A DNA stretch of 28,428 nt, taken from IMG/VR virus record IMGVR_UViG_2534682139_000012, one strand, 5' to 3'. Positions 3,087 to 3,162 of this stretch are shown in pieces. Both the position numbers and the translations under genes were made by a program. A model generated the notes under the pieces. That model searched no databases. It was not told the origin of the DNA and worked only from the letters and a program-made list of their open reading frames with translations. The stretch comes from a virus (lineage: Duplodnaviria > Heunggongvirae > Uroviricota > Caudoviricetes). The first letter of the stretch is position 1, and every line of letters begins with the position of its first letter.

Positions 3087-3101
3087 ACAAAAACCTTGAT
3101 A

Positions 3102-3120
3102 GGTATCTTTTTTTGATACC
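3102..3120. promoter_or_regulatory. Perfect inverted repeat GGTATC-T7-GATACC in the divergent repressor/early-operon control region; candidate operator
   Basis: Seen directly at 3102-3120, 16 bp upstream of the proposed repressor start and about 45 bp upstream of the first rightward ORF; another GATACC half-site lies at about 3181-3186. Confidence 0.35.
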
Positions 3121-3162
3121 AAAATGATTTCACGAGCTATTAGATGATCACAATATACCACT

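Follow-up and report, generated by a model that had tools for sequence, protein, structure and literature searches.

A palindrome in the early promoter spacer as the predicted operator of a P22 C2-like repressor in an Sp13-type, P2-like prophage of Escherichia coli

The palindrome GGTATC-T7-GATACC at positions 3102-3120 of the window (the whole 28,428-nucleotide stretch of viral DNA analysed here) is very probably O_R, the single predicted operator of the leftward immunity repressor, situated in the spacer of a predicted rightward early promoter, P_R. By its closest matches the window is assigned to a P88/Sp13-type, P2-like prophage of E. coli (Peduoviridae, Xuanwuvirus): Escherichia phage 520873, classified in the same genus, shows 95% identity to the window region, and the control region is that of prophage Sp13 of E. 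coli O157:H7 Sakai. This control region is present in about 510 of 5,426 complete E. coli genomes, including O157:H7 Sakai (Sp13) and O103 and O121 STEC strains, and in about 500 complete E. coli genomes it adjoins yecA. Related modules occur in prophages of Yersinia, Klebsiella, Salmonella, Pectobacterium, Gilliamella, Pasteurellaceae, Aeromonas and Burkholderia. A literature search by locus tags and by CP-933T regulators found no functional study of the Sp13-type switch.

The palindrome was located as originally predicted, with GGTATC at 3102-3107, seven T residues at 3108-3114 and GATACC at 3115-3120, within the 76 bp that do separate the repressor ATG (3086-3084, minus strand) from the rightward ATG at 3163. 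Both start codons had been regarded as uncertain, but alignment of homologues supports each of them: every repressor homologue opens with M-x-x-x-IGxRL at the position corresponding to 3086, and the ATG at 3163 is kept in 17 diverged relatives. The elements of the region are as follows.

2682..3086, minus strand: immunity repressor of 134 aa, with a predicted five-helix XRE/HTH_3 N-terminal domain, two-helix C-terminal hairpin and disordered tail
3094..3097, minus strand: AAGG, a likely Shine-Dalgarno sequence for the repressor gene, separated by 7 nt from the ATG and overlapping the opposite-strand -35 element
3096..3101, plus strand: -35 element of predicted P_R, TTGATA (TTGACA in the common allele), found by consensus scan and conserved
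3102..3120, no strand: O_R, predicted repressor-dimer site (family-wide palindrome, co-varying arms, match to repressor residue 32)
3120..3125, plus strand: -10 element of predicted P_R, CAAAAT, with an 18-bp spacer in the window (17 bp in the common allele); predicted start at about 3132
3139..3172, no strand: conserved block TTAGatGATCACAATATACCACTATGAAACAAG, which takes in the candidate P_L -10 element, a GATC site (3146-3149) and the beginning of the ribbon-helix-helix (RHH) gene
3152..3160, minus strand: candidate extended -10 element of P_L, TGgTATATT; predicted start at about 3145
3163..3369, plus strand: first early gene, encoding a 68-aa protein that is probably of the RHH 'Arc-like' kind (PHROG 3431 'Arc-like repressor', E=1e-28)
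3386..3589, plus strand: second early gene, encoding a 67-aa Cox-like excisionase/repressor (PHROG 575, E=1e-27; same annotation in phage 520873)

The repressor and its DNA-binding domain

The leftward gene is annotated in Sakai Sp13 as 'phage repressor protein', and 232 homologues of its product were found. The Pfam families HTH_31, HTH_19 and HTH_3 all match the protein, in each case under the curated cut-off. When its profile was compared with the PDB, P22 C2 was matched at E=8e-7, while the chains of P2 C (2XCJ) and of 186 CI were absent from the phmmer and profile matches even at E <= 10; this pattern bears out the original proposal that the immunity specificity differs from the direct-repeat type of P2. 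The AF2 model has pLDDT above 90 at residues 5-64, followed by helices at 74-85 and 88-103 and a disordered tail at 105-134. A Foldseek search with this model gave TM 0.83 for P22 c2 (rmsd 1.6-2.1 Å, with c2-operator complexes among the best matches) and TM 0.79 for 434; the likeness to P2 C (rank 28, TM 0.67) is that of the general HTH fold. From profile and model together the repressor is predicted to have a helix-turn-helix domain of the P22 C2/434 type, and presumably it binds as a dimer. Residue 32, which is central to the comparison below, stands second in the recognition helix, which spans 31-39 in the model.

No Peptidase_S24 domain was found by Pfam in the 134-aa repressor, and the repressor of Sp13 has likewise been reported to be without a peptidase motif (PMC2669165). 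Upstream of the coding sequence, CAAGG is kept in most enterobacterial relatives, with a presumed Shine-Dalgarno role. The tail of the repressor (2682-2760, minus strand; ISGGNNRIAGRDYNETKGR; NRIAGRDYN) and the N-terminus of the product of the next gene (2590-2666, minus strand; MAVNSNGSNNRVAGRDFHEKN) have a motif in common, NNR[IV]AGRD[YF], which the alignment shows to be kept in most of the enterobacterial homologues of the repressor. The product of that next gene has 216 aa, belongs to PHROG 5825 (unknown function) and is a 'membrane protein' in the Sakai annotation. It might be that the motif is a shared docking or degradation signal.

Comparative evidence for the operator

By itself the palindrome is no more than would be expected by chance, and it is the comparative evidence that makes it non-random. 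Of shuffles of the 76 bp, 28% yield a perfect 6+6 inverted repeat whose spacer is 12 or shorter, and in the window as a whole such repeats number 0.38 per 76 bp on average. The exact 19-mer pattern is not repeated elsewhere in the window; of the hexamer GGTATC/GATACC there are 23 copies where 7.6 are expected, a count reached in none of 100 shuffles, and most of them are inside genes. Preferred Gly-Ile and Asp-Thr codon pairs probably account for this excess, which cautions against taking lone half-sites for operators. The case in point is the further GATACC that was originally proposed as an additional half-site. It is present, at 3181-3186, but it is lost from two relatives that share the operator, reading CAGCACC in L110 and GACACC in L111, and other RHH-type loci do not conserve it either; most plausibly it is a coincidence of His-Asp-Thr codons.

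For the comparison, genomes and viral contigs supplied 160 loci with a gene for a repressor homologue, and these have 79 distinct upstream regions between them. In 47 of the 79, a TTGACA-like -35 element is followed at offset 0 by a palindrome of 18-19 bp and then by a CAnnAT -10 element, an arrangement found in 1.1% of shuffles. The loci that have it span Enterobacterales, Pasteurellaceae, Aeromonas, Halomonas and Burkholderia, and the roughly 40% of homologous loci without such a palindrome belong mostly to a Pseudomonas subgroup with a different recognition helix. Alignment of 26 distinct 18-bp operators showed positions 1-7 to be complementary to positions 18-12 in 22-26 of the 26, while the central 4 bp are not. 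Position 5 switches between T·A and C·G, and position 6 takes all four complementary pairs. Overall 92.6% of cells are paired, compared with 73.1% in shuffles (none of 500 as high), and changes on both sides are seen in 40 cells where 12.9 are expected; in slid registers, used as a control, only 25-44% of cells are paired. The half-site in turn follows residue 32 of the repressor: Leu goes with GGTAT in 24 of 25 cases, Gln with GGTAC in 16 of 17, Thr with GGTTC in all four and Arg with GGTGC in both (Fisher p = 1.7e-9 for the association, a statistic that ignores shared ancestry).

An identical operator, GGTATAAATATTTATACC, was found beside an RHH first gene (L131) and beside a small HTH first gene (the Gilliamella loci; L007, L008 and L120), and its occurrence next to such unlike first genes indicates that the operator tracks the repressor and not the neighbouring gene. 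The label 'Ner-like', tried for the alternative first gene of non-RHH relatives, was dropped in favour of 'small HTH proteins', as weak HTH_31/HTH_3 matches were obtained with one of three of these proteins and none with the other two. Conserved position, symmetric co-variation, correlation with the recognition helix and independence of the neighbouring gene together argue for the palindrome as operator of the XRE repressor. They contradict, over dozens of loci, its dismissal as a functionless chance inverted repeat in an A/T-rich intergenic region, and that reading, for all that the shuffles and the window-wide abundance of GGTATC would accommodate it, is barely credible.

The same evidence bears on the proposal that the palindrome is an operator of the RHH 'Arc-like' or of the Cox-like protein rather than of the leftward repressor. 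RHH proteins do bind short inverted or direct repeats, autoregulation of early genes at an early promoter is common, and the assignment of the first gene as RHH is supported by its profile matches; but the operator sequence is the same where the first gene encodes an unrelated small HTH protein, the operator type co-varies with the helix of the XRE repressor, and the RHH proteins are only 44-54% identical between loci that both keep the GGTAT core. Such an assignment is extremely unlikely.

Co-variation of the arms, taken alone, would fit the stem of an RNA equally well, and a leftward transcript would include the palindrome if P_L lies at 3152-3160. The palindrome would then fold into a hairpin in the 5' leader of the repressor mRNA, immediately before the Shine-Dalgarno sequence, and control translation or stability; such a hairpin does appear in both the minimum-energy and the centroid folds. 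The fold, however, is no stabler than those of shuffled sequences (z = -0.95), and the outer GGTA/TACC is conserved as sequence, beyond the needs of pairing, with G-U pairs in 2 of 189 cells. Moreover, the half-site tracks the recognition helix of the repressor, and the palindrome is locked at zero offset to the -35 and -10 elements of the opposite strand, which a stem does not need. A search of the control region for known RNA families gave none at E <= 1. An RNA hairpin must be counted very unlikely, and the repressor operator is the reading adopted in what follows.

O_R appears to stand alone, since no conserved operator-like site was found within 900 bp and only one full site is present. 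The near-matches at 3392-3409 (3 mismatches) and 3458-3475 (2 mismatches), both at 6-nt spacing, were rejected as operators, since they lie inside the Cox-like gene and relatives that share the specificity do not conserve them; a further near-match at 19646 is in coding sequence and is similarly non-conserved in such relatives. The match at 3458-3475 is destroyed by synonymous changes in L110 and L111, and its equivalent in L006 is a perfect GGTATC-N6-GATACC, although the operator of L006 itself is different. The match at 3458-3475 arises because Gly-Ile-Pro-x-Asp/Asn-Thr is encoded there, and both near-matches in the Cox-like gene are put down to its codons. In some non-RHH relatives (L020, L029, L032, L050, L053 and L056), where the gap between the repressor ATG and the -35 element is longer, it holds an extra copy of the locus's own half-site; in L053 and L056, from Halomonas and Vreelandella, this is GGTTCAT, and the operator is GGTTCAT-N4-ATGAACC. 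In the window an extra half-site between the repressor ATG and the -35 element would not fit.

Promoters, early genes and the window allele

A consensus scan of 2600-3700 gave one sigma-70-like site, TTGATA-18 nt-CAAAAT. Among 27 aligned relatives TTGA is invariant and TTGAC(A/T) invariant or nearly so, and CAnnAT is kept after the palindrome. A position-weight scan of 13 relatives with an RHH first gene placed P_R, as TTGAC(A/T)-17-CAnnAT, top of the rightward candidates in all 13, and placed the extended -10 element of P_L top of the leftward candidates in 11 and second in the remaining two. No -35 element is recognisable for P_L, and a weaker alternative leftward -10, TGaAATCAT (7.5 bits), adjoins the operator. 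The repressor gene is probably transcribed from P_L, as a weak extended -10 promoter facing P_R. The region had been described in the original prediction as a divergent control region: the genes are indeed divergent, but the promoters are predicted by the position-weight scan to stand face to face and not back to back, with starts at about 3132 (plus strand) and about 3145 (minus strand) that are about 13 bp apart. The scan predicts the same layout in relatives.

Across 18 diverged loci whose first gene is of the RHH kind, the -35 element, the ends of the operator, the -10 element and the 34-nt block 3139-3172 are all conserved, and the block is more conserved than the flanking coding sequence. 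Where it varies, the -10 element of P_L retains TG, T1, A2 and T6. The block may also hold an operator of the RHH or the Cox-like protein; inspection of the alignment for dyads and periodic repeats in 3139-3172 gave only a weak TAG...CTA symmetry and irregularly spaced TCAC pentamers. The block includes a GATC (Dam) site at 3146-3149, between the predicted -10 element and start of P_L, which 16 of the 18 RHH-type loci in the alignment retain, and another GATC follows at 3188-3191; Dam methylation could modulate the repressor promoter. No convincing LexA box of the form CTGT-N8-ACAG, which could have accounted for SOS induction, was found near the early region, where the number of matches is that expected by chance.

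The 68-aa product of the first early gene is 44-88% identical among relatives. Pfam RHH_5 matched 10 of 11 of its homologues, with a best E of 3e-4 that is under the cut-off, and its profile matches in the PDB were RHH antitoxins and CopG, at E 0.02-0.3. The gene lacks a Shine-Dalgarno sequence. The protein is a candidate for a Cro/Cox-like counter-repressor. RefSeq/PGAP annotations of E. coli genomes, including that of Sakai (ECs_2621), omit this plus-strand gene and give instead a 45-aa 'hypothetical protein' on the minus strand at 3177-3314, whereas the record of phage 520873 correctly annotates it as an Arc-like repressor. The plus-strand frame is conserved as protein in 17 diverged relatives, while the opposite-strand frames vary between 18 and 84 aa, and on this comparison the minus-strand frame is judged to be spurious.

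The spacing by seven T residues, which the original prediction took as it stood, is real in the window but not native. TTGACA with T6, which gives an 18-bp operator and a 17-bp promoter spacer, is the form in 453 of 513 E. coli genomes, and only five have the TTGATA with T7 of the window, which is also the allele of O103:H2 FWSEC0007; TTGACA with T6 is also found in all 31 near-identical viral contigs, the 18-bp operator is that of all closer relatives, and the 19-bp spacing of the window is unique among them. Strain 2011C-4315 has the intermediate, TTGATA with T6, and one viral contig (L093) has a half-site mutated to GATATC. From these frequencies the window copy is taken to be a rare derived allele, in which TTGACA has changed to TTGATA and T6 to T7. 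The extra T makes both the promoter spacer and the spacing of the half-sites 1 bp longer. Both changes should weaken P_R, which scores 9.4 bits in the window and 12.2 in the common allele; the extra T probably also weakens repressor binding, so that the window copy may bind repressor poorly.

At the left end of the window an IS transposase frame at 1-888 (plus strand; rve and HTH_21 domains) abuts the prophage integrase gene at 770-1633 (minus strand). The integrase frame has 287 aa, compared with 1,002 nt (333 aa) in Sakai and FWSEC0007, and retains only profile positions 2-69 of the 172 of the catalytic Phage_integrase domain; it appears to have been truncated by the IS insertion. Along with the IS-truncated integrase, the TTGATA and T7 allele could be one stage on the way to silencing of this prophage.

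Known switches, proposed mechanism and induction

In the mechanism proposed, a repressor dimer on O_R would exclude RNA polymerase from P_R, and silencing of P_R would turn off the early operon: the RHH protein, the Cox-like protein and then the replication genes. Each half-site would be of about 7 bp (GGTATCt), on either side of a non-symmetric A/T centre, with Leu32 reading base 5. The transcripts from P_R and P_L would overlap, and with P_R shut off, repressor synthesis would also be freed of interference, as happens in P2 and 186. What the comparison demonstrates is an architecture kept across loci, symmetric co-variation of the arms and a correlation between repressor residue and half-site; binding, dimer stoichiometry, transcription starts and interference we infer from sequence. 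The class of mechanism, an HTH dimer on a palindrome over a promoter, is already textbook.

The nearest parallels to the repressor and its site are P22 C2 and 434, with which they share a five-helix HTH_3 DNA-binding domain, an operator with conserved outer bases and a non-symmetric, A/T-rich centre that overlaps the lytic promoter (a predicted one here), and specificity determined by the opening residues of the recognition helix; the two-fold symmetric operator of the common allele, at 18 bp, has the length of that of P22. Unlike those systems, there is here a single operator in place of three adjacent cooperative ones, and it exactly fills the spacer between -35 and -10; the repressor has a two-helix hairpin and disordered C-terminal tail and no S24 peptidase/RecA-cleavage domain; and the phage backbone is P2-like, not lambdoid. 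A two-helix C-terminal segment after an HTH_3 domain is also found in SinR, which came third in the fold search, and a prophage-encoded 'derepression protein' (PF25738) is a possible antagonist analogous to SinI, although the C-terminal alignment with SinR is poor (rmsd 7.2 Å).

In coliphage 186 the lytic and lysogenic promoters stand face to face, and when the strong lytic promoter is repressed the weak lysogenic one is freed from interference. The present system resembles 186 in the predicted face-to-face promoters and, as is suggested below, in induction mediated by an antirepressor and not by repressor cleavage. It differs in that the repressor has no sequence similarity to 186 CI, in that there are no flanking sites like FL and FR (about 300 bp from pR in 186), and in that about 13 bp separate the predicted starts, where 186 has 62 bp.

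With P2, WPhi and P2 Hy dis there is in common the family Peduoviridae, a leftward repressor, an early operon that runs rightward and has a Cox-like gene, and the lack of a peptidase motif in the repressor; and the promoters are predicted to be convergent, with overlapping transcripts, like Pe and Pc of P2 (PMC1904263). The C-type repressors of P2, P2 Hy dis and WPhi, however, bind two direct repeats (PMC1904268, PMC2995052), in contrast to the single inverted repeat here, and direct repeats in 2950-3450 amount only to short two-copy matches away from the promoter. The repressor has no detectable sequence similarity to P2 C, and has only the general HTH fold in common with it. The first early gene also differs from that of P2, in encoding a probable RHH protein (PHROG 3431), with the Cox-like gene (PHROG 575) second. 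Taken together, the repressor and operator comparisons indicate a P22 C2/434-type HTH repressor acting on a palindrome, and not a direct-repeat switch of the P2 C type.

Early-region transcripts and circular DNA of Sp13 have been reported to rise after mitomycin C, which implies that the common allele is a working switch, and this induction proceeds without repressor cleavage (PMC2669165). Further along the early operon of the window, three elements were found that may bear on it.

5973-6047, plus strand: isrK Hfq-binding sRNA (Rfam, 62.8 bits, above the gathering score)
6083-6170, plus strand: C4 antisense RNA of the P1/P7 immI type (Rfam, 78.5 bits, above the gathering score)
6227-6439, plus strand: 70-aa open reading frame matching 'Derepression protein family' PF25738 (31.6 bits), directly downstream of isrK and C4

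An 'antirepressor' frame that overlaps the PF25738 frame is annotated in Sakai. The stretch 5973-6439 looks like an RNA-controlled antirepressor module within a P2-like early operon, and such a module may explain the induction of Sp13 by mitomycin C. A repressor without a peptidase motif that is nevertheless mitomycin C-inducible, together with isrK, C4 and a derepression gene, suggests induction mediated by an antirepressor. By analogy with SinR and SinI, the derepression protein could attack the C-terminal hairpin of the repressor or its conserved NRIAGRDY tail.

It is tempting, though decidedly tentative, to combine these elements into a hybrid circuit, in which a P22/434-style dimer would act on a single palindrome within the promoter spacer, the face-to-face promoters would interfere in the style of P2 and 186, an RHH counter-repressor would replace Cox or Apl, and induction would come about through an epsilon-like 'derepression' protein. 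A circuit of this kind may be one not yet described for P2-like phages. If the hybrid circuit proves true, the response of Sp13 to mitomycin C without a cleavable repressor would be explained, and in any event the present analysis shows where the source of that hitherto unexplained inducibility should be sought. The analysis as a whole yields a concrete operator, a promoter layout and a rule of one residue and one base (residue 32 and base 5 of the half-site), all of them open to direct test and usable for predicting which of these prophages are mutually immune.
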